A stretch of 64,000 nt of DNA from Escherichia coli (GTDB taxonomy: Bacteria > Pseudomonadota > Gammaproteobacteria > Enterobacterales > Enterobacteriaceae): assembly GCF_002854065.1 (NCBI RefSeq), contig NZ_CP024147.1; one strand, given 5' to 3'. Both the position numbers and the translations under genes were made by a program. Position 1 is the first letter of the stretch, and the number at the start of each line of letters is the position of its first letter. Positions 15,209 through 31,058 of the stretch are shown piece after piece. Under the pieces are notes generated by a model. The model was not told the origin of the DNA, did no database searches, and saw only the letters and a list, made by a program, of their open reading frames with translations.

Positions 15209-16426
15209 TTAAGATGATGAGGCGGCCTCAGGGACGTGTTCCGGAGGCCGTTTTTTTAATCGCCACGTCAGTAATAACGCGATTGCGACCAGTCCCGCCG
15301 CCGCCAGATAAATCACCGGTACGCCCGCCCAGCTCATCACCAGCCCAGCCAGTGGTCCGGTCACGCCAAGCGATAAATCCATAAATACGGTGTAAGTTGC
15401 CAGCGCCGCCCCCTGATTTTGCTGCGGAACCGCTTTTACCGCCACTACACCCAATGCCGGGAACACCAGCGAAAACCCGGCCCCCGCCAGTAAGACGCCG
15501 ATTTTCGCCATCCACGGCATAGTCGCCACGCCAACCAGTAGCAGGCCGATTATCTCAACGCTAAAGCAAATCATCGCTACGTTTAAGCCGCCGATACGGT
15601 TAATGCCGTTAGGGAATAACAAACGCGTACCGACAAACGCACAGCTAAACAGCGTCAGCGCGAAAGCCGCACCGTCCCAACCTTTAGCGTCATAAAACAG
15701 CGTGATAAAGGTGGCGATGACGCCAAATCCGGCGGAAGCCAACGCCAGCGCCATACCGTATAGCCAGACGCGCCCAAGCACCGCGCGAAACGGCAGCGGT
15801 TTGCCTTTACTGGCTTTTACCGTCGGACGCGGGATCGCCAACAAAATGGCCACCAGCGCCACGGCCATAATGATTAACGCTAACGCCTGCAAGCCGCCCC
15901 AGTGATAAAACACGACACCTAACGGCGCACCCATCGCCATCGCCCCATAAGTGACAATACCGTTCCACGAAATCACCCGTCCGATATGCAGCGAGCCAAC
16001 CACGCCAACGCCCCACAGGGTCGATCCCGTTCCGGCAAAACTTTGCCCAATCCCAAGGATGACGCGTCCCAGGCAAAGTAATAACAGGCTGATGACGGGC
16101 AGACTGGCGGTTAATCCTGCCGTCAGATATCCCAGACCGCTCAAAAAGCAGCCGCATAAACCGAAGACGACAATCTTTTTGGGGCCCAGCAAATCGGCGT
16201 AACGTCCGGCATGAGGACGGCTCAGCAAGGTGGCAAAATATTGCAGGCTGATAACCAATCCTGCCCAGAAAGCGCTAAAGCCCATCACATCATGGACATA
16301 GCCCGGTAATACAGCGAGCGGCAACCCGATGGTGAGGTAGCTGGCGAAGTTAAACATGACAATGGAGACAATGCGCAAATTCAGGCGCAATCCGTTTAGC
16401 GCGGGTTCGGCTACGGGTTCGGGCAT
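15209..16426 (-). CDS. yhhS: MFS transporter YhhS
   Basis: ORF 15209..16468 trimmed to MPEPVAEPALNGLRLNLRIVSIVMFNF... (405 aa), 12-TM MFS-like. Confidence 0.85.
   Translation of the reverse strand: MPEPVAEPALNGLRLNLRIVSIVMFNFASYLTIGLPLAVLPGYVHDVMGFSAFWAGLVISLQYFATLLSRPHAGRYADLLGPKKIVVFGLCGCFLSGLGYLTAGLTASLPVISLLLLCLGRVILGIGQSFAGTGSTLWGVGVVGSLHIGRVISWNGIVTYGAMAMGAPLGVVFYHWGGLQALALIIMAVALVAILLAIPRPTVKASKGKPLPFRAVLGRVWLYGMALALASAGFGVIATFITLFYDAKGWDGAAFALTLFSCAFVGTRLLFPNGINRIGGLNVAMICFSVEIIGLLLVGVATMPWMAKIGVLLAGAGFSLVFPALGVVAVKAVPQQNQGAALATYTVFMDLSLGVTGPLAGLVMSWAGVPVIYLAAAGLVAIALLLTWRLKKRPPEHVPEAASSS
15224..15262 (+). terminator. Intrinsic terminator of dcrB (overlaps yhhS 3' end on the other strand)
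   Basis: gaggcggcctc...ggaggccg stem followed by ttttttt. Confidence 0.55.
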
Positions 16427-16557: not shown

Positions 16558-17607
16558 ATGGAAACCCCTCAACCCGATAAAACGGGCATGCACATTCTGC
16601 TCAAGCTGGCCTCGCTGGTAGTGATCCTGGCGGGCATTCACGCAGCGGCAGATATCATTGTGCAGCTGTTACTGGCGCTGTTTTTTGCCATCGTCCTCAA
16701 CCCGCTCGTCACCTGGTTTATTCGTCGGGGAGTACAACGCCCCGTTGCCATTACGATTGTAGTGGTGGTGATGCTGATCGCACTAACCGCGCTGGTCGGC
16801 GTACTGGCGGCATCGTTTAACGAATTTATCTCTATGCTGCCGAAGTTTAATAAGGAGCTGACGCGCAAACTTTTTAAATTGCAGGAGATGTTGCCTTTTC
16901 TTAATTTGCATATGTCGCCGGAGCGAATGCTGCAGCGGATGGACTCGGAAAAAGTGGTTACCTTCACCACGGCGCTAATGACCGGGCTTTCCGGGGCAAT
17001 GGCGAGCGTGCTTTTGCTGGTGATGACCGTAGTTTTTATGCTGTTTGAAGTGCGCCACGTCCCTTACAAAATGCGTTTTGCGCTGAATAACCCACAGATT
17101 CACATCGCAGGATTACACCGCGCACTTAAAGGCGTTTCGCATTATCTGGCGTTAAAGACGCTACTCAGTTTATGGACAGGTGTCATCGTCTGGCTGGGGC
17201 TGGAGCTGATGGGGGTGCAGTTTGCGCTGATGTGGGCAGTACTGGCGTTTTTGCTTAACTACGTGCCCAATATCGGCGCGGTAATTTCCGCCGTACCGCC
17301 AATGATTCAGGTGCTGCTGTTTAATGGTATTTACGAATGTATTCTGGTCGGCGCATTGTTTTTAGTTGTCCATATGGTCATCGGCAATATTTTAGAGCCA
17401 CGGATGATGGGCCATCGCCTGGGGATGTCCACCATGGTGGTATTTCTTTCATTGTTAATTTGGGGATGGCTGCTCGGCCCGGTAGGGATGCTACTTTCGG
17501 TGCCATTAACCAGCGTGTGTAAAATCTGGATGGAAACGACGAAAGGCGGTAGCAAACTGGCGATTTTACTGGGGCCGGGCAGACCGAAAAGTCGGTTACC
17601 GGGTTAA
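16558..17607 (+). CDS. yhhT: AI-2E/PerM-family inner membrane transporter YhhT
   Basis: ORF 16477..17607 trimmed to METPQPDKTGMHILLKLASL... (349 aa). Confidence 0.85.
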   Translation: METPQPDKTGMHILLKLASLVVILAGIHAAADIIVQLLLALFFAIVLNPLVTWFIRRGVQRPVAITIVVVVMLIALTALVGVLAASFNEFISMLPKFNKELTRKLFKLQEMLPFLNLHMSPERMLQRMDSEKVVTFTTALMTGLSGAMASVLLLVMTVVFMLFEVRHVPYKMRFALNNPQIHIAGLHRALKGVSHYLALKTLLSLWTGVIVWLGLELMGVQFALMWAVLAFLLNYVPNIGAVISAVPPMIQVLLFNGIYECILVGALFLVVHMVIGNILEPRMMGHRLGMSTMVVFLSLLIWGWLLGPVGMLLSVPLTSVCKIWMETTKGGSKLAILLGPGRPKSRLPG

Positions 17608-17624
17608 TAGCACCTCCTGAGCAG

Positions 17625-17665
17625 GCAATGGCCACCGTTTATCTAACAGTGGCCATTTGATTTGA
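17625..17665 (+). terminator. Hairpin downstream of yhhT (possible terminator) at the edge of the AT-rich junction
   Basis: aatggccac...gtggccatt inverted repeat followed by tttgattt. Confidence 0.4.
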
Positions 17666-17986
17666 GGAAATGATGAAACATTATTCAGAAAATTAATTTA
17701 AAAAAACCATTCCTTAAGTCAAATATATATAAACGCCGAATAGCGATTAAATCCTTCTCAAAGAATGCACTGATAACATTGTGTTATTTTTATTGCCTCA
17801 TTTTTCTCACTCACTTATAGTTGGTCCCTGCTGGCAGTAATTTAGTCATTTCAGAGATTTTTACTCTGATGTGCACTTACTGACTTATCTCACAAGTAAT
17901 TTTTTCTCTAAATAAAGAATAGTGATGCCAGCAATTACAGTTAAATCTTGCTTTACTCGTAAAAACAATACTTTAATGGGGTTCTA

Positions 17987-18376
17987 ATGAGACATTACAT
18001 GAAGTGGTTTGCGGCTATTGCTGTTGTGGGTGCTTTAGCAGGTTGCGCGCGTACTGCGCCAATTGATCAGGTTCACTCAACCGTCAGCGCTGGTCATACC
18101 CAGGAACAAGTGAAAAAAGCGATTCTGAAAGCTGGCGTTGAACGCAAATGGATTATGTCCGAAGCCGGACAAGGCATAATTAAAGCACGTCAACAGTCAC
18201 GCGATCATTCAGCGGAAATACGCATTAACTACACGGCATCCAGCTACGATATCAATTATGAAAATAGCCAGAACCTACAAGCGTCAGGCGGACAAATTCA
18301 TAAAAACTACAATCGCTGGGTCCGCAATCTCGACAAAGATATTCAACTGAATTTGTCAGCGGGCGCAGATTTATAA
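17987..18376 (+). CDS. Putative lipoprotein of unknown function; first ORF of the accessory insert
   Basis: 129-aa ORF with signal peptide and lipobox (VGALAGC); preceded by GGGG RBS; alternative start 12 nt downstream (MKWFAA...). Confidence 0.5.
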   Translation: MRHYMKWFAAIAVVGALAGCARTAPIDQVHSTVSAGHTQEQVKKAILKAGVERKWIMSEAGQGIIKARQQSRDHSAEIRINYTASSYDINYENSQNLQASGGQIHKNYNRWVRNLDKDIQLNLSAGADL

Positions 18377-18435
18377 TTCTTCCTAAAGTCGGGCCGTTGC
18401 GGTCCGATAATAATTTAATTCCCTCTTAACAGGTT

Positions 18436-19503
18436 GTGCCCAACATGTACGAACAGGATTCTCTTAGCGCACTGGATGCGATTACCGAAGCTCAACGCAT
18501 TGCCTTTGCCCCTATGCTTTTTCAAACAGCACTCTGCCTACGTAATGCGGGTGTACTTTCATATCTGGATCGGCAAGGCAAACATGGCGCAACGCTGGCT
18601 GATATCACCGAACATAGCCATATCAACGAATATGCTGCCAGCGTTCTGTTAGATATGGGCTTAAGCGGGCGAATTATTACCTGTAAAGAGGGAATTTATT
18701 ACCTGGCGAAAATCGGTCATTACCTCCTGCATGACACTATGACTCGCGTGAATATGGATTTCACCCAGGATGTCTGTTACCAGGGGCTCTTCTTCCTCGC
18801 CGATTCACTCAATGAAGGAAAACCTTCCGGGTTAAAAGTATTTGGCGACTGGTCGACGATATATCCGGCACTTTCGCAATTACCAGACGCCGCTCGTGAA
18901 AGCTGGTTTGCGTTTGATCATTACTATTCAGATGGCGCATTTAACGCCGTACTGCCTTATGTATTCGCCAACAACCCCACAACATTGTACGATGTAGGCG
19001 GCAATACGGGTAAGTGGGCTTTGCGTTGCTGCAAATACAATGAAAACATCGCCGTGACGTTATTAGATCTGCCACAACAAATCGTACTAGCGAAAGAAAA
19101 TATCGCGAATGCAGGTTTTTCTGATCGCATAGATTTCCATGCGGTGGATATGCTAAGCGATGCCCCATTACCGGGCGAGGCTGATATCTGGTGGATGAGC
19201 CAATTTTTAGACTGTTTTTCACCCGAACAAATAATTAGCATACTCAGCAAAATTGCCAGCGTAATGAAGCCTGGCGCAAAAGTTTGCATCATGGAGTTGT
19301 TCTGGGATGCGCAGCGGTTTGAAGCAGCATCGTTTAGCCTGAACGCGTCCTCACTTTATTTTACCTGCATGGCAAACGGTAACAGCCGTTTCTATAGTGC
19401 AGAGAAATTTTACGACTATCTGAATAAAGCAGGATTCCAGGTAGCAGAGCGCCACGATAATTTAGGCGTTGGGCATACACTTTTGATATGCCAAAAGAAA
19501 TAA
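18436..19503 (+). CDS. apeB: SAM-dependent O-methyltransferase (class I), ApeB-like
   Basis: 355-aa ORF with SAM-binding motif YDVGGNTG and LLDLP; track start appears to be GTG, ATG 9 nt downstream (MYEQDSL...). Confidence 0.75.
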   Translation: MPNMYEQDSLSALDAITEAQRIAFAPMLFQTALCLRNAGVLSYLDRQGKHGATLADITEHSHINEYAASVLLDMGLSGRIITCKEGIYYLAKIGHYLLHDTMTRVNMDFTQDVCYQGLFFLADSLNEGKPSGLKVFGDWSTIYPALSQLPDAARESWFAFDHYYSDGAFNAVLPYVFANNPTTLYDVGGNTGKWALRCCKYNENIAVTLLDLPQQIVLAKENIANAGFSDRIDFHAVDMLSDAPLPGEADIWWMSQFLDCFSPEQIISILSKIASVMKPGAKVCIMELFWDAQRFEAASFSLNASSLYFTCMANGNSRFYSAEKFYDYLNKAGFQVAERHDNLGVGHTLLICQKK

Positions 19504-19543
19504 TCGTCACTTAATAATTTTGGTTTACCGCGGGCGCGCGTTG

Positions 19544-20266
19544 ATGAAATTTACATTAAATATTACCGACTGGCAGGCACTGGCGCCTGGACTTAGCGAA
19601 GCGCAGCAATGGCAAGCATGGTCGCGCCAGCCGTGGGCGATTGACCCTGCCGCGCCGTTGGCAAAATTAAGTGAACTGCCAATGATGACCGCCCGCCGCC
19701 TCAGTTCAGGCAGCAAACTGGCTGTTGAATGCGGTCTGGCAATGCTACGCCGCCATCAGCCAGACGCCGTTTTGTATACCAGTCGTCATGGCGAACTGGA
19801 GCGCAATTACCGCATTGTTCATGCACTGGCAACCGAACAGGCGCTTTCTCCGACGGACTTCGCGCTCTCCGTACACAACTCTTCCGTGGGTAACCTGACC
19901 ATTGCGGCCAAACAGCCGATCGTTTCGTCATCGCTTTCGGCTGGTCGCGACACTTTCCAGCAAGGTTTGTGTGAAGTGCTTAGTCTGTTACAGGCGGGCT
20001 ACCAGCGCGTGTTGATGGTCGATTTTGATGGCTTTCTGCCTGAGTTCTATCATCCACAACTGCCCGCAGAAATGCCGACCTGGCCGTACGCCGTCGCGCT
20101 GGTGATTGAAGCTGGCGATGAGTGGCAATGTGGAACGCAGTCAGCCATTGCGGGTAATGAAACAACACTGCCGCAAAGCATGTTGTTTTTACAGCACTAT
20201 TTACAAAATGCGGACACATTTTCACTGCCTGGCGAGCGCGTACAGTGGCGCTGGAGCCGTGGATGA
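19544..20266 (+). CDS. apeC: Ketosynthase-like chain-length-factor protein (KS-beta without active-site Cys), ApeC-like
   Basis: ORF 19520..20266 trimmed to ATG (MKFTLNITDWQ...); KS-like N-terminal fold but SSSLSAG where KS carries the catalytic Cys. Confidence 0.65.
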   Translation: MKFTLNITDWQALAPGLSEAQQWQAWSRQPWAIDPAAPLAKLSELPMMTARRLSSGSKLAVECGLAMLRRHQPDAVLYTSRHGELERNYRIVHALATEQALSPTDFALSVHNSSVGNLTIAAKQPIVSSSLSAGRDTFQQGLCEVLSLLQAGYQRVLMVDFDGFLPEFYHPQLPAEMPTWPYAVALVIEAGDEWQCGTQSAIAGNETTLPQSMLFLQHYLQNADTFSLPGERVQWRWSRG

Positions 20267-21084
20267 GTAAGCTGCTGTCACGTCTGGAGTGGACCTGGCG
20301 ACTGGTCATGACCGGGTTATGTTTTGCCCTGTTTGGTCTCGGCGGCCTGCTGCTTTCTGTCGTGTGGTTTAACATATTGTTAGTTTTGGTGTGGGATACT
20401 TCCCGCCGCCGTCGTTTGGCGCGTCGCAGCATTGCCGCCAGTTTTCGCCTGTTTTTAACTGTCGCGAAAGGGCTTGGCGTGCTGGATTATCGTATTGATG
20501 GCGCTGAAATTTTACGTCAGGAACGCGGTTGCCTCGTCGTAGCCAATCATCCCACGCTGATCGATTACGTGCTGCTGGCGTCAGTCATGCCAGAAACTGA
20601 CTGCCTGGTGAAAAGCGCGCTGTTAAAAAATCCTTTTCTTGGCGGCGTCGTGCGGGCGGCAGATTATTTAATCAACAGCGAAGCTGAAACCCTGTTACCC
20701 CGCTGCCAACAGCGACTGGCACAGGGTGACACTATCCTGATTTTCCCCGAAGGCACGCGAACGAAGCCCGGTGAAAAAATGACGCTGCAGCGCGGGGCGG
20801 CGAATATTGCCGTGCGCTGTGCCAGCGATTTACGCATCGTGACGATCGGCTGTAGCGAGCATCTGCTGGATAAACAAAGTAAATGGTATGACGTTCCACC
20901 TGACCGGCCGTTTTTTACGGTTGCAGTCCATGGTCGGGTTGAAATCAATAAATTTTACGATGCAACTTCACAAGAACCGGCGCTGGCAGCAAGGCAGTTA
21001 AACCGGCATCTTTTGCTTCAATTACAACAAGGTTGTTTACCTCTCTCAGGAATAAATAATGCAAGCGCTTTATCTGGAAATTAA
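20263..21084 (+). CDS. apeD: Lysophospholipid/1-acylglycerol-3-phosphate acyltransferase family protein, ApeD-like
   Basis: HX4D motif (NHPTLIDY), FPEGTR motif, N-terminal TM helix; ATG overlaps upstream stop (ATGA). Confidence 0.8.
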   Translation: MSKLLSRLEWTWRLVMTGLCFALFGLGGLLLSVVWFNILLVLVWDTSRRRRLARRSIAASFRLFLTVAKGLGVLDYRIDGAEILRQERGCLVVANHPTLIDYVLLASVMPETDCLVKSALLKNPFLGGVVRAADYLINSEAETLLPRCQQRLAQGDTILIFPEGTRTKPGEKMTLQRGAANIAVRCASDLRIVTIGCSEHLLDKQSKWYDVPPDRPFFTVAVHGRVEINKFYDATSQEPALAARQLNRHLLLQLQQGCLPLSGINNASALSGN

Positions 21085-21316
21085 AAACCTCATCATCAGC
21101 ACCCTCAATCTGGACGAGTTGACGCCTGATGATATCGATACCGACGCGCCGCTGTTTGGCGACGGTTTAGGGCTGGACTCTATCGATGCCCTGGAACTGG
21201 GACTGGCAGTAAAAAATGAGTACGGCATCGTGCTCTCTGCGGAAAGCGAAGAGATGCGTCAGCACTTTTTCTCCGTCGCCACTCTGGCCTCTTTCATTGC
21301 TGCGCAACGTGCCTGA
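21059..21316 (+). CDS. apeE: Acyl carrier protein 1, ApeE-like
   Basis: 85 aa, phosphopantetheine attachment motif GLDSIDALEL. Confidence 0.85.
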   Translation: MQALYLEIKNLIISTLNLDELTPDDIDTDAPLFGDGLGLDSIDALELGLAVKNEYGIVLSAESEEMRQHFFSVATLASFIAAQRA

Positions 21317-21327
21317 GGAAAGCCATC

Positions 21328-21579
21328 ATGACAGAACAACAAACCGTCTATCAGGAAGTCTCAGCCCTGCTGGTTAAGCTGTTTGAAATCGATCCGCAGG
21401 ACATCAAACCTGAAGCGCGCCTGTACGAAGATCTGGAACTGGACAGCATCGACGCCGTTGACATGATTGTGCACCTGCAAAAGAAAACCGGTAAGAAAAT
21501 CAAGCCGGAAGAGTTTAAAGCAGTGCGTACAGTCCAGGATGTCGTCGAGGCTGTAGAACGCCTGCTACAAGAAGCCTGA
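21328..21579 (+). CDS. apeF: Acyl carrier protein 2, ApeF-like
   Basis: 83 aa, attachment motif LELDSIDAVDMI; GAGGAA RBS. Confidence 0.85.
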   Translation: MTEQQTVYQEVSALLVKLFEIDPQDIKPEARLYEDLELDSIDAVDMIVHLQKKTGKKIKPEEFKAVRTVQDVVEAVERLLQEA

Positions 21580-21583
21580 TCTG

Positions 21584-22165
21584 ATGTCGGGCATTCGCTC
21601 GCTACCGATGATTAAGCTGCTGACTGGATTATTGCTGCTCGCCTGGCCGTTTGTGATTTGGTTTGGCTTAGCGCATAACGGCCTGCACTGGCTGTTGCCG
21701 CTAATAGCGTTGCTGCTTTTGTTGCGCCTGCGCCAGACCCGTCGCCAGGCGGGGCCGCTCCAGGTCGTCACACAAATCGTCGCTGTCGTGGGCATCGCAT
21801 TATGTGTCGCCAGCGTTCTGTTGAAAACACACCAGCTACTGCTGTTTTACCCGGTAGTGGTTAACGCGGTCATGCTGGCGGTTTTTGGCGGTTCGCTGTG
21901 GTCGGCAATGCCGATAGTTGAGCGGCTGGCGCGTTTGCAGGAGCCAGATCTGCCGGAAAAGGGCATGCGCTATACCCGCCGCGTCACGCAAATCTGGTGC
22001 GGCTTTTTCATCATCAACGGTGGAATTGCCCTCTTTACCGCGCTTTATGCCGATATGTCGTTATGGACCGCCTGGAACGGCATGATTGCTTATTTGTTGA
22101 TGGGAACATTAATGGCTGGTGAATGGCTGGTGCGCCGTCAGGTGATGAAAAGAGATCGCGCATGA
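21584..22165 (+). CDS. apeG: Integral membrane protein of unknown function, ApeG-like
   Basis: 193 aa with ~5 hydrophobic helices; translationally coupled to neighbours. Confidence 0.6.
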   Translation: MSGIRSLPMIKLLTGLLLLAWPFVIWFGLAHNGLHWLLPLIALLLLLRLRQTRRQAGPLQVVTQIVAVVGIALCVASVLLKTHQLLLFYPVVVNAVMLAVFGGSLWSAMPIVERLARLQEPDLPEKGMRYTRRVTQIWCGFFIINGGIALFTALYADMSLWTAWNGMIAYLLMGTLMAGEWLVRRQVMKRDRA

Positions 22166-23523
22166 AGCAGACCTTACCGCTTGCACGCTGGCTGACTGCG
22201 CCACGCTCTGATGACACACCCATTGCGTGGCTGGACGAAAGCTTCTGGACGCTGGGCGATTTGCGTCACGATGTCGCGCAACTTATCTGCCGCTTGCAGC
22301 AACAGCCGGGTGAACGCTGGGCGCTGTGCTTTGAGAACAGCTATCTGTTTATCGTTGCCCTGCTCGCCACGCTACACGCCGGAAAAACGCCGGTGCTTCC
22401 GGGGCATAACCGTGTTATCCAGCTTAACGAGCAACGTGAACTTTTTGATGGTGTGCTTAGCGACAGCGAACTTAACTGGCAAGGTTCATTGCTGTTGGTA
22501 GCAAGTTCCCCACAAATCGCGACACAATCCTTCACCTTTGCCGCTATAGCGCCAGAGGCTTTTATCGAGCTGTTTACCTCCGGTTCCACGGGACAGCCGA
22601 AACGGGTGATTAAACCTGTTCATTTGCTGGATCGTGAAGCAGAACTGCTGGCTGAACGATTAGGCGCACGTCTGGCGGGTTGTCGTGTCGTCGGTTCCGT
22701 ATTGCCGCAGCATTTGTACGGCCTGACTTTTCGCGTTTTCCTGCCCATGGCGTTGGGATTACCGCTGCACGCCGCCATGCTCTGGTATGTCGAACAGTTT
22801 GCCGCGTTGAGTCATCAGCATCGCTATATCTTCATCAGCAGCCCGGCATTTTTGAAGCGCCTGGATACCCAGCTTTCTCCGCCACCCGTTCAGGTGCTTC
22901 TCTCTGCTGGCGGTGAGCTGCCGTGGCAGGATGTACAACACACCGCAAGCTGGCTGCGCGTCTGGCCTGATGAAATCTACGGCAGCACGGAAACCGGTGT
23001 CATCGCCTGGCGTTACCGCGAACAAGAGCAACGCCGCTGGCTACCCTTCCCTGGTATGCAGTTCCAGGCCGAAGGTGATTCTTTTCGTCTCTTTTCACCG
23101 CTGATGGCGGAAGATAACGGCCTGTTACTCGACGATCTCTTGCAGTTTAGCCAGGACGGTCAGTTCCATCTGATGGGGCGTCGTGGGCGCATCGTTAAGA
23201 TTGAAGAAAAACGTATTTCACTCCAGGAAGTAGAACAACGTCTGCTGGCGCTGGACGGTATTCGCGAGGCGGCGGCAGTTCCCGTTACGCGCGGCGGGCG
23301 TCAGAGCATAGGCGTTTTGCTGGTGCTGGATGACGAAGCTCATCTGCAATGGCAGAACGGCGGCGGGCATAGCCAGGAAATGACCTGGCGGCGTTTACTG
23401 CGCCCGACGCTGGAGCCAGTTGCTATTCCGCGTTACTGGCGCGTTATTGATGAAATGCCAGTAAACAGTATGAACAAGCGTGTCTATGCGCAATTACAGG
23501 AGTTATTTCATGAAGCCCCATGA
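22162..23523 (+). CDS. apeH: AMP-dependent synthetase/ligase (aryl/acyl adenylating enzyme), ApeH-like
   Basis: ORF 22123..23523 trimmed to ATG overlapping upstream stop (MKQTLPLARWL...); adenylation P-loop FTSGSTGQPKRV. Confidence 0.8.
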   Translation: MKQTLPLARWLTAPRSDDTPIAWLDESFWTLGDLRHDVAQLICRLQQQPGERWALCFENSYLFIVALLATLHAGKTPVLPGHNRVIQLNEQRELFDGVLSDSELNWQGSLLLVASSPQIATQSFTFAAIAPEAFIELFTSGSTGQPKRVIKPVHLLDREAELLAERLGARLAGCRVVGSVLPQHLYGLTFRVFLPMALGLPLHAAMLWYVEQFAALSHQHRYIFISSPAFLKRLDTQLSPPPVQVLLSAGGELPWQDVQHTASWLRVWPDEIYGSTETGVIAWRYREQEQRRWLPFPGMQFQAEGDSFRLFSPLMAEDNGLLLDDLLQFSQDGQFHLMGRRGRIVKIEEKRISLQEVEQRLLALDGIREAAAVPVTRGGRQSIGVLLVLDDEAHLQWQNGGGHSQEMTWRRLLRPTLEPVAIPRYWRVIDEMPVNSMNKRVYAQLQELFHEAP

Positions 23524-23863
23524 AATCGAGCGCCATCAGGCACAAACGAATCACCTTGAAATTGTTCTGCATCTCAGGGCGGATCTGTTCTGGTTTCGCG
23601 GTCATTTTGCCGTGCAACCATTACTCCCAGGAGTTGCGCAAATCGACTGGGCGATGAGCTACGCGCTCAATCTGCTCGCGCCTGGCTGGCGTTTTCACTC
23701 CATTCAGAACATAAAATTCCAGTCTCCGTTGCTGCCGGAAAACCGCGTCACGCTCGCGCTTAACTGGCAGGAAGAACGCCAGATTCTGAGCTTTAGCTAT
23801 CAGCGTCACGACGGTGACGCCCGCCACACCGCCAGTAGCGGGAAGATCCGCCTATGTCGGTAA
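23510..23863 (+). CDS. apeI: Hotdog-fold 3-hydroxyacyl-ACP dehydratase (FabA/FabZ-like), ApeI-like
   Basis: ~117 aa from MKPHEIERHQ...; hotdog-size protein in FAS-like context; start overlaps apeH end. Confidence 0.65.
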   Translation: MKPHEIERHQAQTNHLEIVLHLRADLFWFRGHFAVQPLLPGVAQIDWAMSYALNLLAPGWRFHSIQNIKFQSPLLPENRVTLALNWQEERQILSFSYQRHDGDARHTASSGKIRLCR

Positions 23864-25530
23864 ACTTTTCTCCCTGCGTGTTGATTCCCTGCTATAACCA
23901 CGGCGCGATGATGCCGGGCGTGCTGGCGCGTCTTAAGCCATTTAATCTCCCCTGTATTGTGGTGGACGACGGCAGCGATGCCGCCACGCAACAGCAACTG
24001 GATAATCTGGTTAGCGAACAGCCTGGCGTGACCTTAATTCGCTTAGCAGAAAACGCAGGTAAAGGCGCGGCAGTGATGCGTGGCTTACAGGCAGCGGCAG
24101 ACGCAGGGTTCAGCCATGCGGTGCAGGTGGATGCTGACGGTCAACATGCGATTGAAGATATCCCCAAACTGCTGGCACTCGCTGAACGACACCCTGCGGC
24201 GCTGATCTCCGGCCAGCCAATTTACGATGACTCCATCCCCCGCTCACGGCTTTACGGGCGCTGGGTCACCCACGTCTGGGTATGGATCGAAACGCTCTCC
24301 CTGCAACTGAAAGACAGCATGTGCGGCTTTCGCGTTTATCCGGTTGCGCCAACGCTGCAACTGGCAAAACACGCCACCATCGGCAAGCGGATGGATTTCG
24401 ACACTGAAGTGATGGTGCGCCTCTACTGGCAGGGAAACACCAGCTATTTCGTGCCGACCCGCGTCACCTATCCACTGGACGGGCTTTCGCATTTTGATGC
24501 CCTGAAAGATAACGTCCGCATCTCGCTCATGCACACGCGTCTGTTTTTCGGCATGTTACCGCGTATTCCTTCACTGCTGATGCGCCGCTCTTCCAGCCAC
24601 TGGGCGCGGCAGAGTGAAGTGAAAGGATTATGGGGAATGCGCCTGATGCTGCTGGTCTGGCGTCTGCTGGGAAGAACGGCGTTTAGCGCGCTGCTTTACC
24701 CGGTGGTGGGCGTCTACTGGCTCACTGCTTCTCGTGCGCGCAAAGCGTCGCAAGACTGGCTCGCCCGTGTACGACAGCATCAACCACAGGCGGCAAAACT
24801 CAACAGCTATCAGCACTTTCTACGTTTCGGTAATGCCATGCTCGACAAAATCGCCAGTTGGCGCGGCGAGCTGCAACTGGGGCGCGATGTGCTGTTTGCG
24901 CCAGGCGCAGAAGCGGCACTTAACGTCAGCGATCCGCGCGGCAAATTGCTGCTGGCCTCGCATCTTGGCGATGTGGAAGTGTGCCGGGCGCTGGCAAAAA
25001 TTCAGGGCTACAAAACCATTAACGCGCTGGTGTTTAGCGAAAACGCCCAACGCTTTAAACAGATAATGCAGGAGATGGCCCCGCAGGCCGGCATCAACCT
25101 GATGCCGGTAACGGATATCGGCCCGGAAACCGCCATCCTGCTCAAAGAGAAGCTGGATAACGGCGAATGGGTGGCGATTGTCGGTGACCGCATCGCCGTC
25201 AACCCGCAACGCGGCGGCGACTGGCGCGTCTGCTGGAGTCCGTTTATGGGCCAGCCTGCGCCCTTCCCACAGGGGCCGTTTATTCTCGCGTCTATTTTGC
25301 GCTGCCCGGTGAATCTGATTTTCGCCCTGCGCCAGCACGGCAAGCTGCATATTCACTGCGAAACCTTTGCCGACCCGCTGCTGTTGCCGCGTGGCGAACG
25401 CCAACAGGCGCTGCAAAACGCTATCGACCACTACGCCGCGCGTCTGGAACATTACGCGCTCCAGTCGCCCCTCGACTGGTTTAATTTTTTCGATTTCTGG
25501 CAACTGCCGGAAATTCAGGACAAGGAGTAA
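23854..25530 (+). CDS. apeJ: Two-domain protein: N-terminal family-2 glycosyltransferase fused to a C-terminal domain of unresolved (possibly acyltransferase-like) function, ApeJ-like
   Basis: 558 aa; GT-A signatures CYNHGAMMP, VVDDGSDA, QVDADGQH in the first ~230 aa; remainder has no motif I can assign. Confidence 0.75.
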   Translation: MSVNFSPCVLIPCYNHGAMMPGVLARLKPFNLPCIVVDDGSDAATQQQLDNLVSEQPGVTLIRLAENAGKGAAVMRGLQAAADAGFSHAVQVDADGQHAIEDIPKLLALAERHPAALISGQPIYDDSIPRSRLYGRWVTHVWVWIETLSLQLKDSMCGFRVYPVAPTLQLAKHATIGKRMDFDTEVMVRLYWQGNTSYFVPTRVTYPLDGLSHFDALKDNVRISLMHTRLFFGMLPRIPSLLMRRSSSHWARQSEVKGLWGMRLMLLVWRLLGRTAFSALLYPVVGVYWLTASRARKASQDWLARVRQHQPQAAKLNSYQHFLRFGNAMLDKIASWRGELQLGRDVLFAPGAEAALNVSDPRGKLLLASHLGDVEVCRALAKIQGYKTINALVFSENAQRFKQIMQEMAPQAGINLMPVTDIGPETAILLKEKLDNGEWVAIVGDRIAVNPQRGGDWRVCWSPFMGQPAPFPQGPFILASILRCPVNLIFALRQHGKLHIHCETFADPLLLPRGERQQALQNAIDHYAARLEHYALQSPLDWFNFFDFWQLPEIQDKE

Positions 25531-25533
25531 AGG

Positions 25534-25956
25534 GTGCTTAACGATCCCCGATTTACCGCTGAAGTCGAGCTGACCATTCCCTTTCACGACGTCGATATGA
25601 TGGGCGTGGCCTGGCACGGTAACTATTTTCGCTACTTTGAAGTGGCCCGCGAGGCGCTGCTCAACCAGTTCAATTACGGCTATCGGCAGATGAAAGAGTC
25701 CGGTTATTTGTGGCCAGTGGTCGATGCGCGGGTGAAATATCGCCACGCCCTCACCTTTGAGCAACGCATCCGCGTGCGTGCGCATATCGAAGAGTTCGAA
25801 AACCGTCTGCGGATTGGCTATCAGATTTTCGATGCCGAAACGGGCAAACGCGCCACCACCGGATACACCATTCAGGTCGCGGTCGACGAGCAAAGTCGCG
25901 AACTGTGCTTTGTCAGCCCCGATATTCTGTTTGAACGCATGGGAGTCAAACCATGA
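25534..25956 (+). CDS. apeK: 4HBT/YbgC-type hotdog acyl thioesterase, ApeK-like
   Basis: 140 aa; apparent GTG start after AAGGAG RBS; hotdog thioesterase-like N-terminus (FHDVDMMGVAWHGNYFRYFE). Confidence 0.7.
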   Translation: MLNDPRFTAEVELTIPFHDVDMMGVAWHGNYFRYFEVAREALLNQFNYGYRQMKESGYLWPVVDARVKYRHALTFEQRIRVRAHIEEFENRLRIGYQIFDAETGKRATTGYTIQVAVDEQSRELCFVSPDILFERMGVKP

Positions 25957-26558
25957 AATTTTTACCGCTACTGGCGCTGCTGATTAGCCCGTTTGTGAGC
26001 GCCCTGACCCTGGACGATCTTCAGCAACGCTTTACCGAACAATCGGTGATCCGCGCCCATTTCGATCAAACCCGGACGATTAAAGATCTGCCGCAGCCGC
26101 TGCGATCTCAGGGCCAGATGTTGATCGCCCGCGACCAGGGGCTGTTGTGGGATCAAACCTCACCGTTCCCCATGCAACTATTACTGGACGATAAACGCAT
26201 GGTGCAGGTGATCAACGGTCAGCCGCCGCAAATCATCACGGCAGAAAACAACCCGCAGATGTTTCAGTTTAACCACCTGCTGCGCGCGCTGTTCCAGGCC
26301 GATCGCAAAGTGCTGGAACAAAACTTCCGCGTCGAATTTACCGACAAAGGCGAAGGCCGCTGGACGCTGCGCCTGACCCCAACCACCACGCCGCTGGATA
26401 AAATTTTCAACACCATCGATCTCGCCGGGCAAACCTATCTGGAGAGCATTCAACTTAATGATAAACAGGGCGATCGCACCGATATTGCTCTTACCCAACA
26501 TCAACTGACGCCAGCGCAACTGACCGATGACGAACGCCAACGTTTTGCCGCCCAGTAA
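25953..26558 (+). CDS. apeL: LolA-like periplasmic lipid/lipoprotein carrier, ApeL-like
   Basis: 201 aa with signal peptide MKFLPLLALLISPFVSA; ATGA overlap with upstream gene. Confidence 0.65.
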   Translation: MKFLPLLALLISPFVSALTLDDLQQRFTEQSVIRAHFDQTRTIKDLPQPLRSQGQMLIARDQGLLWDQTSPFPMQLLLDDKRMVQVINGQPPQIITAENNPQMFQFNHLLRALFQADRKVLEQNFRVEFTDKGEGRWTLRLTPTTTPLDKIFNTIDLAGQTYLESIQLNDKQGDRTDIALTQHQLTPAQLTDDERQRFAAQ

Positions 26559-28845
26559 ACGCCCCGCGCTGTTATGGGGGCTAGTCTGCCTGGTCATGGC
26601 GGCGGCGTTGCTGATCCTGCTGCCGCAATCACGGCTGAACAGTAGCGTGCTGGCTATGTTACCCAAACAGGCGATGGGCGATATTCCCCCAGCGCTGAAT
26701 GACGGCTTTATGCAGCGTCTGGACCGCCAACTGGTGTGGCTGGTCAGCCCCGGTAAAGAGGCTAATCCCAGGGTGGCTCAGGAGTGGCTGACGCTGCTGC
26801 AAAAATCCGCTGCGCTCGGCGACGTTAAAGGGCCAATGGATGCCGCCAGCCAGCAAGCGTGGGGCGCGTTTTTCTGGCAGCACCGCAACGGCCTGATTGA
26901 CCCCGACACCCGCGCCCGCCTGCAAAACGGCGGCGAAGCGCAGGCGCAGTGGATCCTCTCCCAGCTTTATTCTGCATTCTCCGGGGTAAGCGGCAAGGAG
27001 CTGCAAAACGATCCGCTGATGTTAATGCGCGGCTCGCAGCTGGCGATGGCAAAAAATGGCCAGCGTTTGCGGCTGATGGACGGCTGGCTGGTGACGCAGG
27101 ATCCCCAGGGCAACTACTGGTATCTGCTGCACGGCGAACTGGCGGGATCGTCGTTTGATATGCAGCAAACCCACCAGCTCATCACGACCCTGAATACGCT
27201 GGAAAAGGATCTGAAAACGCGTTACCCACAGGCGCAGTTGCTCTCGCGCGGCACGGTATTTTACAGCGATTACGCCAGTCAACAGGCGAAGCAGGATATC
27301 TCAACCCTGGGCGTGGCAACGCTGCTGGGGGTGATATTACTGATTGTGGCGGTGTTCCGCTCTTTGCGCCCATTGTTGCTTTGCGTGATTTCCATCGGCA
27401 TCGGCGCGCTGGCGGGAACGGTCGCCACTTTATTGATTTTCGGTGAATTACACCTGATGACGCTGGTGATGAGCATGAGCGTTATCGGCATTTCCGCTGA
27501 CTACACGCTCTATTATCTCACCGAGCGGATGGTGCACGGCAACGACGTTTCGCCGTGGCAAAGCCTGGCGAAAGTACGCAATGCCCTGCTGCTGGCGCTG
27601 CTCACCACCGTGGCGGCATATCTGATTATGATGCTCGCCCCCTTCCCCGGCATTCGCCAGATGGCGATTTTTGCCGCCGTCGGGTTGAGCGCCTCCTGTC
27701 TGACCGTCCTGTTCTGGCATCCGTGGCTGTGCCGTGGCCTGCCGGTGCGTCCGGTTCCGGCGATGGCGCTGATGCTGCGCTGGCTGGCAGCGTGGCGGCG
27801 CAATAAAAAACTGTCGCTGGGTCTGCCCGTCGCGCTGGCGCTGTTTTCGCTGGCGGGGATGTCAATGCTGCGCGTCGATGACGATATCTCGCAGTTACAG
27901 GCGCTGCCGCAGCATATTCTGGCGCAGGAGAAAGCCATTACCGCCCTGACCGGACAAAGCGTCGATCAAAAATGGTTTGTGGTTTACGGCGATTCGCCAC
28001 AGCAAACATTGCGGCGACTGGAGAAATATACCGCCTCACTTGAGTATGCGAAAAAAGAGGGGCTTATCAGCAACTACCGCACCATTCCGCTGAACTCCCT
28101 TGCGCGGCAGGAGGAAGATTTACAACTGCTGAAAACGGCGGCCCCGACAGTAACAAAAGCGCTGCAAAATGCCGGGCTGACGGCAGTGAACCCGGATCTC
28201 AACGCCATGCCAGTGAACGTTGATGAATGGCTGGCAAGCCCTGCCAGTGAAGGCTGGCGTCTGCTGTGGCTGACGCTGGAAAACGGCGAAAGCGGCGTAC
28301 TGGTGCCGGTTGAAGGGGTTAAAAGTAGCGCGTTGATGCAGGAAATCGCCACATATTACCCTTGCGGCATTGCCTGGGTTGATCGCAAAAGCACCTTTGA
28401 TGAGTTGTTCGCGCTTTACCGTTATGTCTTAACCGGCTTGTTGCTGGTGGCGCTGGCGGTGATTGCCTGCGGCGCAGTGGCCCGTCTCGGCTGGCGCAAA
28501 GGGCTTATCAGCCTTGTACCTTCGGTGCTTTCGCTGGGTTGTGGTCTGGCGGTGCTGGCGATGAGCGGGCAGGCGGTGAATCTCTTTTCGCTGCTGGCGC
28601 TGGTGCTGGTGCTTGGCATCGGCATCAACTACACGCTGTTTTTCAGTAATCCGCGCGGCACACCATTAACTTCGCTACTGGCGATCACGCTGGCAATGCT
28701 CACCACCTTGCTGACGCTGGGAATGCTGATATTCAGCGCCACCCAGGCCATCAGCAGTTTTGGCATTGTGCTGGTGAGCGGTATTTTCACCGCCTTCCTG
28801 CTTTCGCCGCTGGCGATGCCCGATAAAAAGAGAACAAAAAAATGA
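26527..28845 (+). CDS. apeM: MMPL/RND-superfamily membrane exporter, ApeM-like
   Basis: 772 aa, two hydrophobic TM bundles separated by soluble domains; start ambiguous (ATG 26527 overlapping apeL, or in-frame start further down). Confidence 0.75.
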   Translation: MTNANVLPPSKRPALLWGLVCLVMAAALLILLPQSRLNSSVLAMLPKQAMGDIPPALNDGFMQRLDRQLVWLVSPGKEANPRVAQEWLTLLQKSAALGDVKGPMDAASQQAWGAFFWQHRNGLIDPDTRARLQNGGEAQAQWILSQLYSAFSGVSGKELQNDPLMLMRGSQLAMAKNGQRLRLMDGWLVTQDPQGNYWYLLHGELAGSSFDMQQTHQLITTLNTLEKDLKTRYPQAQLLSRGTVFYSDYASQQAKQDISTLGVATLLGVILLIVAVFRSLRPLLLCVISIGIGALAGTVATLLIFGELHLMTLVMSMSVIGISADYTLYYLTERMVHGNDVSPWQSLAKVRNALLLALLTTVAAYLIMMLAPFPGIRQMAIFAAVGLSASCLTVLFWHPWLCRGLPVRPVPAMALMLRWLAAWRRNKKLSLGLPVALALFSLAGMSMLRVDDDISQLQALPQHILAQEKAITALTGQSVDQKWFVVYGDSPQQTLRRLEKYTASLEYAKKEGLISNYRTIPLNSLARQEEDLQLLKTAAPTVTKALQNAGLTAVNPDLNAMPVNVDEWLASPASEGWRLLWLTLENGESGVLVPVEGVKSSALMQEIATYYPCGIAWVDRKSTFDELFALYRYVLTGLLLVALAVIACGAVARLGWRKGLISLVPSVLSLGCGLAVLAMSGQAVNLFSLLALVLVLGIGINYTLFFSNPRGTPLTSLLAITLAMLTTLLTLGMLIFSATQAISSFGIVLVSGIFTAFLLSPLAMPDKKRTKK

Positions 28846-29426
28846 TCAAATCCACATTCTGGCGAGCGTTCGCCCTGACCGCTACGCTTATCCTCACCGG
28901 CTGTAGCCACTCGCAACCAGAACAGGAAGGCCGCCCGCAGGCGTGGCTGCAACCTGGCACGCGCATCACGCTGCCGGCACCAGGGATTTCACCCGCAGTC
29001 AATTCGCAGCAACTGTTGACCGGCAGCTTCAACGGCAAAACCCAGTCGCTGTTAGTGATGCTTAACGCCGACGATCAGAAAATCACCCTTGCCGGGCTGT
29101 CGTCGGTCGGCATTCGCCTGTTTCTGGTGACCTACGATGCGCAAGGGCTACGCGCCGAGCAATCCATCGTCGTCCCACAGTTACCGCCCGCAAGTCAGGT
29201 ACTGGCTGACGTGATGCTCAGCCACTGGCCGATTAGCGCCTGGCAACCGCAACTTCCCGCAGGATGGACACTTCGCGACAACGGTGACAAACGCGAGCTG
29301 CGTAACGCCAGCGGCAAACTGGTCACGGAAATCACCTATCTGAATCGCAAGGGCAAACGCGTGCCAATCAGCATTGAGCAGCATGTCTTTAAATACCACA
29401 TCACCATTCAATACTTAGGTGACTGA
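28842..29426 (+). CDS. apeN: Lipoprotein of unknown function, ApeN-like
   Basis: 194 aa, signal peptide plus lipobox LTGC; ATGA overlap with apeM stop. Confidence 0.6.
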   Translation: MIKSTFWRAFALTATLILTGCSHSQPEQEGRPQAWLQPGTRITLPAPGISPAVNSQQLLTGSFNGKTQSLLVMLNADDQKITLAGLSSVGIRLFLVTYDAQGLRAEQSIVVPQLPPASQVLADVMLSHWPISAWQPQLPAGWTLRDNGDKRELRNASGKLVTEITYLNRKGKRVPISIEQHVFKYHITIQYLGD

Positions 29427-29427
29427 T

Positions 29428-30597: not shown

Positions 30598-31058
30598 GCC
30601 ACTATTTATCCCCCGGCGCTTATCTGCCCCACGACGCGCCCATGTTACTGCTGGAAGACGTGGTGAGCGTCAGCGATGACAGCGCGGTGTGCCGCGTGAC
30701 GGTTTCGCCCAGTGGCGTACTGGCACCGTTTCTCGACCCGGACGGCAATCTCCCCGGCTGGTTTGCCCTTGAACTGATGGCGCAAACCGTCGGCGTCTGG
30801 TCTGGCTGGCATCGCCACCAGCAGGGCAAAAACAGTATTGAGTTAGGGATGATACTGGGCGCGCGTGAATTGCTTTGCGCCGCTGGCATTCTGCCCGCAG
30901 GCCAGACGCTGACCATTACCGTCAAACTGCTGATGCAGGACGATCGCTTCGGCAGTTTTGAGTGCAGCATCAACGACGGCGAGGCGACGGGCCGCATTAA
31001 CACCTTCCAGCCGACCGCGGAAGAACTTACCACCCTGTTTCAACAAGGAGCGTCCTGA
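30594..31058 (+). CDS. apeP: Hotdog-fold dehydratase, ApeP-like
   Basis: 154 aa; apparent GTG start after GGGAGGG RBS, overlapping apeO stop. Confidence 0.65.
   Translation: MSHYLSPGAYLPHDAPMLLLEDVVSVSDDSAVCRVTVSPSGVLAPFLDPDGNLPGWFALELMAQTVGVWSGWHRHQQGKNSIELGMILGARELLCAAGILPAGQTLTITVKLLMQDDRFGSFECSINDGEATGRINTFQPTAEELTTLFQQGAS

Follow-up and report, generated by a model that had tools for sequence, protein, structure and literature searches.

The closest described relatives of the locus analysed here are two aryl-polyene (APE) clusters of Escherichia coli: O-island 138 (OI-138) of O157:H7 EDL933, which is discussed together with the orphaned AcpT of K-12, and the cluster of CFT073, in which apeA (c1204) is the first gene (Johnston 2021, PMC8253772). 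Earlier publications already cover the OI-138 APE biosynthetic cluster, apeA as its first gene and the orphaned state of acpT in K-12. In the account that Johnston 2021 (PMC8253772) gives of De Lay and Cronan 2006, AcpT activated the O157:H7 homologues of ApeE and ApeF in vitro. A CFT073 apeA deletion strain retained its pigment, lost the HPLC peak of the mature APE lipid and accumulated early intermediates, and a localisation role was proposed for ApeA (Johnston 2021, PMC8253772).

We examined a 64-kb stretch of E. coli DNA (the window) that is 100% identical to strain 100416 and 99.7–99.8% identical to O157:H7, the O157 differences lying in recombination patches (e.g. 91% identity in 19500–19799). 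The genes run in the order apeA-apeB-...-apeR (17987–33015), followed by the phosphopantetheinyl transferase gene acpT, and the RefSeq annotation at the locus reads lipoprotein, methyltransferase, CLF, LPLAT, two ACPs ... KS, acpT. We take this stretch to be where the E. coli APE cluster natively begins; the cluster is OI-138 of O157:H7, from which it does not differ in kind. The CFT073 cluster resembles it at the front: ApeA there also has 129 residues, with the lipobox at the same position, and its gene is likewise first, upstream of apeB and followed by a stem-loop. It differs in that the CFT073 apeA is only ~65% identical to that of the window while most of the cluster is 95–99% identical, and in that the sequence preceding apeA shows no relation; the two cluster types become homologous exactly at the Cys20 codon (18044).

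Our overall reading, to which we give a probability of roughly 0.8, is that the region forms the front end of a native APE cluster, with ApeA as an outer-membrane lipoprotein, an old intergenic spacer before it and a deletion edge at yhhT. The finding itself is ordinary and the value of the analysis is mainly corrective: it recasts the edge as a probable deletion breakpoint, the spacer as a presumed ancient regulatory gap and the lipoprotein as a constant cluster member. Feature coordinates are collected in Table 1.

Table 1. Features at the yhhT–apeB junction and at the right edge of the variable segment (window coordinates).
Feature	Position	Strand	Details
yhhT, AI-2E family transporter, backbone gene left of the variable segment	16558..17607	+	Pfam PF01594, E 3.8e-85; RefSeq annotation of strain 100416
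AT-rich intergenic spacer	17608..17986	+	379 bp, GC 0.332; presumably regulates apeA and perhaps the entire cluster
Terminator-like hairpin after yhhT	17627..17657	+	AATGGCCACCGTT / AACAGTGGCCATT then TGATTTG; inverted repeat I3
Best candidate sigma-70 promoter	17793..17821	+	TTGCCT-17 nt-TATAGT; 9/12 consensus matches; suggestive only
Shine-Dalgarno sequence	17978..17981	+	GGGG; other genera have GGGAG; 5 nt upstream of the 17987 ATG
apeA, 129-aa lipoprotein precursor, first APE cluster gene	17987..18376	+	64% identity to CFT073 ApeA/c1204
Conserved stem-loop	18388..18408	+	GTCGGGCCG-TTG-CGGTCCGAT; 11 nt past the apeA stop; 9-bp stem
apeB, FlxJ family-type O-methyltransferase, leading enzyme gene of the cluster	18445..19503	+	Pfam Methyltransf_2, E 5.8e-18
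Right edge of the variable segment	32997..33016	+	3′-terminal 20 nt of apeR with its stop codon (cattaaacgttggccctga) and the spacer base ahead of the acpT ATG at 33017; kept in cluster-less E. coli

The edges of the cluster

The original prediction took the AT-rich segment after yhhT to mark an insertion boundary, so that the 15.4-kb cluster would be a horizontally acquired island inserted between yhhT and acpT, with foreign DNA at its junction. Several features of the locus would fit such an origin. The cluster is polymorphic, being present at yhhT in 569 of 5426 complete E. coli genomes; it counts among the O-islands, a class usually described as horizontally acquired; and its GC content (0.558) exceeds that of yhhT (~0.51). 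Homology with cluster-less genomes breaks off sharply at window position 17603, that is, at the yhhT stop codon (TAA, 17605–17607). Furthermore, a second copy of the cluster, that of CFT073, lies in a true integrase-bearing island beside cdiBA remnants and not between yhhT and acpT.

Against this origin, the order yhhS-yhhT-AT-rich spacer-apeA recurred in ~26 loci from a dozen genera. Genera in which apeB follows as well were Citrobacter, Klebsiella, Lelliottia, Leclercia, Enterobacter, Kosakonia, Huaxiibacter, Superficieibacter and Pluralibacter, together with a cryptic Escherichia. The sequence that follows the yhhT stop codon could itself be aligned between genera over its first ~20 nt. At the other edge, a single K-12-type empty site was common to 4856 of the 5426 E. 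coli genomes, and it retained the 3′ end of apeR with its stop codon as an exact 20-nt match to the window, to strain 100416 and to O157. Island-bearing genomes matched a query across the K-12 junction from position 134 on, in sequence annotated as 'beta-ketoacyl-ACP synthase', and one further locus (L039) partly showed the intact outgroup apeR-acpT junction in the same register as the K-12 remnant. Because the last 20 nt of apeR remain before acpT, we read the empty site as a deletion scar; had the cluster been inserted instead, the island's last gene would have had to end in recipient DNA.

An island should be absent from the syntenic site in relatives and should leave an empty site free of island sequence, and we found neither, given the ~26 syntenic loci and the retained 20 nt of apeR. 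We found no integrase and no tRNA between yhhT and acpT, and no flanking direct repeats linking the two junctions. Composition gave a mixed picture: the cluster's GC content lay slightly above that of the backbone, which would count for an island, but the spacer (GC 0.33) was equally AT-rich in every genus. acpT, which is kept everywhere, encodes the cluster's own phosphopantetheinyl transferase, and K-12 and O157 share one YhhT protein accession. The notion of an insertion boundary is therefore not supported by the synteny, the apeR remnant or the search for mobility hallmarks, and we consider insertion of the cluster as an island highly improbable.

In the history that we favour instead, a single ancient deletion would have had its left breakpoint at the yhhT stop codon and have taken out the spacer, apeA and everything that follows, up to almost the end of apeR. 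It would have happened in a common ancestor of ~90% of E. coli, K-12 among them, and have left acpT orphaned. The cluster may then have been re-acquired in some lineages by homologous recombination via its flanks. An independent internal deletion was seen in Enterobacter asburiae, where apeE is fused to the 3′ half of apeR, with acpT following. The K-12 site also carries 33–34 nt of filler between yhhT and the apeR remnant, for which we found no source in the cluster. A borderline match (E 0.12) of 14 exact nucleotides (20/21 with one gap) linked this filler to additional sequence that follows apeA in Citrobacter koseri and that itself had no match in E. coli.

The AT-rich spacer and the candidate promoter

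An AT-rich gap of about 380 bp had been described after yhhT, and its composition was borne out: its GC content (Table 1) compares with 0.51 in yhhT, 0.46 in apeA, 0.558 in the rest of the cluster and a mean of 0.523 over the 64-kb window, in which just 2.2% of all 379-bp windows were equally or more AT-rich. The accompanying description of the gap as laden with A/T tracts held for runs of at least 5 bases (6 vs 2.0 ± 1.3 in composition-matched shuffles, P ~0.01), but runs of at least 4 and of at least 6 bases were not enriched over such shuffles. Within E. coli the spacer sequence occurs at this locus alone, and 12.7% of its positions were variable among six Escherichia alleles. No ORF longer than 27 aa and no notable small ORF was found in 17608–17986. 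An Rfam search of 17400–18600 (E up to 1) gave no match in the spacer, its sole match being a chance snoRNA within yhhT.

In other genera, each of the 26 loci linked to yhhT had an AT-rich spacer of 265–696 bp (GC 0.30–0.43) between yhhT and apeA. We footprinted two sets of spacers, one of 27 yhhT-linked loci and one of 19 loci from different genera, and found that conservation between genera was confined to the two ends, namely the hairpin region after the stop codon and the Shine-Dalgarno sequence with the ATG. We regard the spacer as an old, syntenic intergenic region and not as a scar of foreign DNA.

At the left end of the spacer, the hairpin after yhhT has 13-nt arms that are 92% complementary (predicted fold −22.8 kcal/mol, z −1.7). 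Two substitutions in Escherichia sp. E1V33 maintain or strengthen its pairing, and in its place other genera have another hairpin, ACCTACC...GGTAGGTTTT. This terminator-like structure is the predicted terminator of yhhT. A second inverted repeat (I2, 17655–17669 / 17710–17724) was rejected, its pairing being lost in E1V33.

The original prediction also placed the operon promoter in this segment. The constancy of the AT-rich spacer across the 26 loci and the terminator-like hairpin at its start agree with that placement, whereas the search for the promoter itself yielded one weak sigma-70-like site at chance level. This candidate was the single plus-strand match to the consensus (3 sites on both strands vs 2.9 expected from shuffles), and match counts in the promoter and terminator scan as a whole equalled shuffle expectation. 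Its predicted transcription start would lie at ~17828, giving a leader of ~158 nt. It sits in a 47-nt block (17782–17828) with zero variable sites among the six Escherichia alleles, and the footprinting of both sets revealed no promoter block conserved between genera. The AT-richness and the excess of A/T runs of at least 5 bases are features expected of DNA silenced by H-NS, but the H-NS high-affinity motif (tCGATAAATT) had no match with up to 2 mismatches in 17608–17986, and the IHF consensus had one 1-mismatch site at 17963–17975, which is uninformative in AT-rich DNA. A promoter for apeA in the spacer, perhaps serving the whole cluster, is plausible, and the spacer would then combine a yhhT terminator with an apeA promoter.

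The start of apeA and its linkage to APE genes

The original prediction described a 129-aa lipoprotein ORF followed by the first biosynthetic gene. Both are present: the ORF has the lipobox LAGC, and the methyltransferase gene apeB comes next. PGAP annotates a product of 125 aa. The Shine-Dalgarno sequence and the ATG at 17987 were kept in 19 of 19 aligned loci from at least 12 genera, while an internal ATG at 17999 was not conserved. We therefore prefer the 129-aa start, which the conservation of the Shine-Dalgarno sequence and first ATG across the family indicates to be the true one. By BLASTP, the product aligned with CFT073 ApeA over 129/129 residues (64% identity, E 3e-68); the CFT073 match was named c1204 by its position beside the methyltransferase gene c1203. 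For apeB, the ATG is at 18445, and the ATGTACGAA start is kept in other loci; the mechanical ORF opens at a GTG at 18436, directly after the end (18435) of the segment that the original prediction had covered. The apeB product scored 473 bits against the NCBIfam model FlxJ_fam_MTase, under the 560-bit cut-off.

Whether the lipoprotein belongs to the cluster or is a hitch-hiker had been left unclear. apeA was present in all E. coli genomes with apeB-apeC (824/824); our E. coli searches, which covered both cluster types, matched apeA in 825 records at 832 places, with the same numbers for apeB-apeC, and each record that matched apeB-apeC also matched apeA. Across Enterobacterales, apeA adjoined apeB, apeC or apeD in 66 of 67 genome loci, and this adjacency survived the loss of apeB and inversion relative to apeC/apeD, since the 66 include loci without apeB as well as Serratia loci with divergent apeA. 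It also held outside Enterobacterales, where relatives at 46% and 32% identity directly preceded ApeC-D-E-F-G-H-I-J homologues. The conservation of the ORF in other APE-type clusters, proposed as a check, was thus found.

We weighed these counts against the idea that apeA stands by itself, with a promoter and a terminator of its own, as a mere neighbour with no APE role. A terminator-like stem-loop does follow apeA directly, and it is canonical, with a T-run, in Xenorhabdus, Morganella and one further locus (L055). The silent APE cluster of Xenorhabdus doucetiae was activated via a promoter placed before apeB and not before apeA. When the two E. coli clusters are compared, identity is ~65% for apeA and the beginning of apeB, against 95–99% for most of the rest. 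One apeA is an orphan, in Tenebrionibacter, beside genes for an Ail/Lom outer-membrane protein and a BapA-like adhesin, and one distant family member (~29% identity) has no visible APE context, the next protein appearing by eye, from its translation, to be serine hydrolase-like and not an APE enzyme; several other distant members lie on contigs too short to reveal their context. The pigmentation of the CFT073 deletion strain could likewise be cited for this idea, but in the same strain the peak of the mature APE lipid is missing and early intermediates build up (Johnston 2021, PMC8253772), and the adjacency of apeA to APE genes persists across loci, across E. coli genomes and down to 32% identity. 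An independent role is thus improbable, and by its homology to c1204 and its genomic distribution the 129-aa ORF is ApeA, a constant member of the cluster. A search with ApeI homologues for APE clusters without apeA returned, among the matches listed, close Enterobacterales only, which is uninformative on this point.

The stem-loop between apeA and apeB

The stem, which is GC-rich, accounted for nearly all of the predicted folding energy (−16.3 kcal/mol) of the 76-nt stretch that contains it. We folded the corresponding region of 34 other loci and found that a stem-loop started ~10–20 nt past the apeA stop in almost all of them, including Xenorhabdus and Morganella, whose stem sequences are unrelated to that of E. 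coli. RNAalifold on a 27-sequence alignment recovered 9 pairs in the stem, 5 of them with compensatory changes, and polymorphisms within E. coli fell in the loop or yielded a G-U pair. Directly 3′ of the stem, E. coli has no U-tract (the tail is AUAAUAAUUUAAUU), and our scan called no terminator here. Read-through is therefore likely in E. coli, and the element is possibly an attenuator, a partial terminator or an RNA-stabilising element.

In view of the conserved stem-loop, apeA and apeB-R might not form one simple transcription unit. Transcription from the spacer would pass the stem-loop into apeB-R by read-through, which could set the level of apeA expression apart from that of the enzymes. 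One could suppose instead that the spacer drives apeA only, and that apeB-R have a promoter of their own, lying within the final part of apeA or in the 68-bp gap before apeB. Besides the stem-loop, inspection of the sequence offered a GATAAT at 18406–18411 as a possible −10 element, overlapping the 3′ arm of the stem. Yet the hexamer 17 nt upstream of it is just CTAAAG (2/6), not an acceptable −35, and a scan of 18000–18445 gave no promoter-like site on the plus strand. The apeA-apeB gap is moreover short, conserved in length and operon-like, and the missing U-tract makes read-through likely. A separate apeB promoter is thus rather unlikely, and passage of transcription through the stem-loop remains our preferred reading.

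Predicted lipidation and fold, and possible role of ApeA

ApeA has the marks of a lipoprotein, with a basic N-terminus, a hydrophobic core and a lipobox [LVI][ASTVI][GAS]C within the first 35 residues. The signal peptide covers residues 1–19 (MRHYMKWFAAIAVVGALAG, followed by C), and Cys20, encoded at 18044–18046, was invariant in 18 close homologues and conserved in 90% or more of a diverse set of 95. By the +2 rule of E. coli, lipoproteins with no Asp at +2 are sorted to the outer membrane. Because residue +2 of ApeA reads as Ala (+3 is Arg), we infer that the protein should be lipidated on Cys20 and delivered to the outer membrane through the Lol pathway.

Searches of Pfam, NCBIfam and PDB sequences with ApeA and 95 family members gave nothing above cut-off, and the family, for which neither Pfam nor NCBIfam has a model, comprised 2328 clusters at 50% identity (E up to 1e-3). 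The AlphaFold model of ApeA was confident (pLDDT 91.4). The mature domain of ~109 residues is predicted to have a beta-alpha-beta4-alpha topology, as in the KA1/helix-grip (TBP-like) fold, and could be superposed on solved KA1 domains or on the N-terminal helix-grip domain of BamC, a likeness that is seen through the predicted model, at sequence identities of 5–14%. The model thus points to membrane- and lipid-binding folds, and binding of a ligand or membrane by ApeA is a prediction from it.

Since the CFT073 apeA deletion strain stays pigmented, ApeA is dispensable for the chromophore, and we infer its part in APE biology from the remaining evidence. Most likely it would act late, in the assembly of the APE lipid or its placement in the outer membrane, alongside ApeL (LolA-like), ApeM (an MMPL transporter) and ApeN. 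A more specific proposal, modelled on the predicted fold, is speculative and on balance doubtful: ApeA would define a large but uncurated group of small lipoproteins at the outer membrane, and its KA1/helix-grip-like domain would serve there as an acceptor or membrane-binding factor for aryl-polyene lipids delivered by ApeL, with its dosage uncoupled from that of the enzymes by an attenuator stem-loop. The 129-aa start, the cross-genus stem-loop and the structural model of ApeA offer handles on the transport of APE lipids to the outer membrane and on the regulation of clusters that are usually silent. As a functional analogy only, ApeA resembles acceptor lipoproteins of the LolB type in being a small, predicted outer-membrane lipoprotein encoded with a LolA-like protein (ApeL) and an inner-membrane exporter (ApeM). 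We detected no homology of ApeA to LolB, and its fold is not the unclosed barrel of LolA and LolB; the LolB-like candidate of the cluster is ApeN (DUF3261).

Layout of the yhhT–apeA junction

The original prediction described an AT-rich, A/T-tract-laden gap after yhhT, followed by a 129-aa lipoprotein ORF and the first biosynthetic gene. The gap has a GC content of 0.332 (yhhT, 0.51; downstream cluster, 0.558), a richness in AT equalled by only 2.2% of all 379-bp segments in the 64 kb, and it contains six A/T runs of at least five against 2.0 ± 1.3 in shuffles. It has no Rfam match, no ORF longer than 27 aa and no second copy across 5426 E. coli genomes. With this size and composition, the description holds as written. 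Three other segments of the window (~2168-2740, 45325-49140 and 61544-62760) match or exceed the spacer in AT content (GC down to 0.29), and the ~3.8-kb stretch at 45-49 kb is long enough for a foreign gene block.

Features of the yhhT–apeB region (window coordinates)
Feature	Position	Strand	Remark
yhhS	15209-16426	minus	
yhhT	16558-17607	plus	
Non-coding gap yhhT–apeA	17608-17986		379 bp
Hairpin after yhhT	17627-17657		13-nt arms, then TGATTTG
Sigma-70-like site	17793-17821	plus	TTGCCT-17-TATAGT; sole plus-strand match in consensus scan
apeA	17987-18376		129-aa ORF
Stem-loop	18388-18408		GTCGGGCCG-TTG-CGGTCCGAT; 11 nt 3' of apeA stop
O-methyltransferase gene	from 18445		68-bp gap after apeA

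The window is E. coli chromosome, and gene order was taken from the RefSeq annotation of strain 100416, which over the region is 100% identical to it (O157:H7, 99.7-99.8%). It runs lipoprotein, methyltransferase, KS chain-length factor, lysophospholipid acyltransferase, two ACPs, COG4648 protein, AMP-binding enzyme, FabZ/ApeI-type dehydratase, GT2 glycosyltransferase, thioesterase, LolA-family protein, MMPL transporter, DUF3261 protein, KS, ApeP dehydratase, FabG2 and KS, then acpT and nikA-E. The aryl-polyene (APE) BGC, OI-138 and ApeA are already known, and the region is part of this published system; the observed junction is real and was described correctly, but is ordinary, and our additions are minor, namely a start-codon correction, a conserved stem-loop, a fold assignment and the mosaic structure of two clusters.

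The lipoprotein ORF is apeA

The lipoprotein had been considered either a cluster member or a hitch-hiker. The ORF product shares 64% identity across its full 129 residues (E 3e-68) with that of the first gene of the paralogous CFT073 cluster. The gene list of Johnston et al. (2021; PMC8253772) gives apeA/c1204 as "lipoprotein", and in that study deletion of CFT073 apeA left the pigment in place and abolished the mature APE-lipid HPLC peak. An E. coli search for apeB-apeC returned 825 records at 832 places in 824 genomes, and apeA gave exactly equal numbers; the ORF is not missing from otherwise identical islands. By this identity and constant linkage, the ORF is ApeA, a cluster member rather than a hitch-hiker.

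In a scan with one genome per species, apeA adjoined apeB, apeC or apeD in 66 of 67 Enterobacterales loci, including Raoultella-type loci without apeB and Serratia proteamaculans-group loci with apeA divergent from apeC/apeD. The sole unlinked copy, in Tenebrionibacter intestinalis (L029 611-4662), is flanked by genes for an Ail/Lom-type beta-barrel outer-membrane protein and a BapA-like adhesin. A beta-barrel outer-membrane protein gene also lies immediately upstream of apeA in a distant APE cluster (L076, 5325-5936). Outside the Enterobacterales group, relatives at 46% and 32% identity directly precede ApeC-D-E-F-G-H-I-J homologues. One family member at ~29% is followed by a protein that, on reading its translation by eye, resembles a serine hydrolase and not an APE enzyme. 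The family comprises 2328 clusters at 50% identity (E up to 1e-3), and searches of Pfam, NCBIfam and PDB sequences returned no match to it.

All aligned genera keep the ATG at 17987 and, before it, a Shine-Dalgarno sequence (GGGG in the window, GGGAG elsewhere); the second ATG at 17999, the PGAP start for the 125-aa WP_001301470.1 (O157-type lipoprotein), is not conserved. Since the first ATG is conserved family-wide and the second is not, the predicted length of 129 aa stands, and the pattern indicates that the PGAP form is too short by segment 17987-17998. The precursor reads MRHYMKWFAAIAVVGALAG/CAR, with lipobox LAGC and an invariant Cys20; the Ala at +2 predicts outer-membrane sorting via the Lol pathway under the E. 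coli +2 rule. Neighbours of the AlphaFold-predicted fold include TBP-like and START/Bet v 1 folds, and sequence identity to structural neighbours is just 5-14%, so the likeness is one of fold only. The modelled fold is compatible with, rather than proof of, a lipid- or membrane-binding role. Such a role would suit ApeA beside LolA-like ApeL, the MMPL transporter ApeM and ApeN, in line with the suggestion of Johnston et al. (PMC8253772).

The left edge of the cluster is a deletion breakpoint

The AT-rich gap had been taken to mark an insertion boundary. The cluster is present at the yhhT site in 569 of 5426 genomes, and 4856 share a single K-12-type junction, the empty yhhT-acpT site, at 97.6-100% identity. 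Among the cluster-less genomes listed, homology to the window ends at 17603, inside the last yhhT codons. Within the 54-bp junction, unexplained filler accounts for 33-34 nt and is joined to cattaaacgttggccctga, the 3'-terminal 20 nt of apeR including its stop; in the window, the apeR end overlaps the acpT start as TGAtATG. That the empty site keeps the apeR 3' end argues against insertion, because the last gene of an inserted island would not end in recipient DNA. The order yhhS-yhhT-spacer-apeA-apeB recurs in ~26 loci, from Citrobacter, Klebsiella, Superficieibacter, Lelliottia, Huaxiibacter, Leclercia, Enterobacter, Kosakonia, Pluralibacter and a cryptic Escherichia lineage; every one has a spacer of 265-696 bp with GC 0.30-0.43, and ~20 nt directly 3' of the yhhT stop can be aligned across genera. 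No integrase, tRNA or junction repeat was found at the cluster edges. On the apeR remnant, the recurring order and these bare edges, the insertion reading is to be reversed: the edge at the yhhT stop is a deletion breakpoint. Some lineages may nevertheless have re-acquired the cluster by homologous recombination through its flanks. Enterobacter asburiae INSAq146 (L039 6001-10570), in which apeA-B-C-D-E is fused to the apeR 3' half (residues 218-408) with acpT directly after, is an independent internal deletion, and shows both that synteny extends to the right-hand side and that the cluster tends to suffer deletions.

No source for the K-12 filler (L002 4110-4142) was found within the cluster. 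The filler has a borderline match (E 0.12) to Citrobacter koseri (L017 6391-6478), with 14 nt exact and ~20/21 with one gap; the matched segment is an extra ~85 nt inserted after apeA and has no match in E. coli. Citrobacter amalonaticus S646 (L015) has an unusually long 696-bp spacer upstream of apeA, containing sequence ending ...CTGAAGTATGACGAGTATAA, which resembles the ERIC consensus and is a candidate ERIC (IRU) repeat element.

Transcription signals around apeA

The hairpin after yhhT is most likely the yhhT terminator; other genera carry a different, more canonical hairpin at the same spot (ACCTACC...GGTAGGTTTT). Promoter-scan matches were as numerous as expected from shuffles. The sigma-70-like candidate lies within 17782-17828, the longest block without a variable position among six Escherichia alleles (12.7% of spacer positions vary), and such invariance is a ~1-in-12 event after multiple testing and thus only suggestive of a promoter. 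The spacer contains no promoter block conserved between genera and no H-NS high-affinity motif, and its only IHF-like site has one mismatch. Published arrays show expression and co-regulation of the OI-138 genes in EDL933, with stationary-phase levels 2-6-fold higher when rpoS is mutated; for the paralogous CFT073 cluster, expression at 37 °C exceeds that at 23 °C. A promoter somewhere in the spacer, its position unproven, is therefore a reasonable expectation.

The 76-nt stretch holding the stem-loop after apeA has a predicted fold of -16.3 kcal/mol. Of the 34 other loci folded, almost all have a stem-loop starting ~10-20 nt past the apeA stop, among them the second E. coli cluster and, with unrelated stem sequence, Xenorhabdus and Morganella. 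Compensatory changes affect 5 of 9 stem pairs in a 27-sequence alignment, and the positions that vary within E. coli are either in the loop or yield a G-U pair. A T-run directly 3' of the stem makes a canonical terminator in Xenorhabdus, Morganella and locus L055; the E. coli tail is AUAAUAAUUUAAUU. The stem-loop may act as an attenuator or terminator of transcription between the two genes, apeA and apeB, or it may serve to stabilise the apeA mRNA. Its presence is in keeping with the silent Xenorhabdus doucetiae cluster, which was switched on by inserting a promoter in front of apeB. The predicted operon promoter is thus supported only in part: a spacer promoter can be expected, but apeA and the genes after it may not simply be co-transcribed.

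Mosaic structure of the two E. coli clusters

One E. coli APE cluster lies at yhhT-acpT, whereas the other occupies an integrase-bearing island adjoining cdiBA. We compared window 18044-33015 with NZ_CP027312.1 (L003/L080) and CFT073 (L085). For most genes nucleotide identity is 95-99%, and both clusters encode the same last KS protein, WP_000198472.1; identity falls to ~64-68% over apeA and the apeB 5' end (18044 to ~18650) and again over 21900-23700 (apeG 3' end, apeH). Homology between the two clusters is confined to the stretch from the Cys20 codon to the end of apeR. This mosaic points to gene conversion between the loci or to a chimeric origin. Against O157:H7 (L081), the window is 99.7-100% identical over 17400-19499, 91% over 19500-19799 (apeC 5' part) and 95-100% beyond; these patches inside the cluster are due to recombination. 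Between panM and livJ, O157:H7 also carries the toxin-antitoxin pair ataR-ataT (L081 1688-2488), which the window strain lacks.
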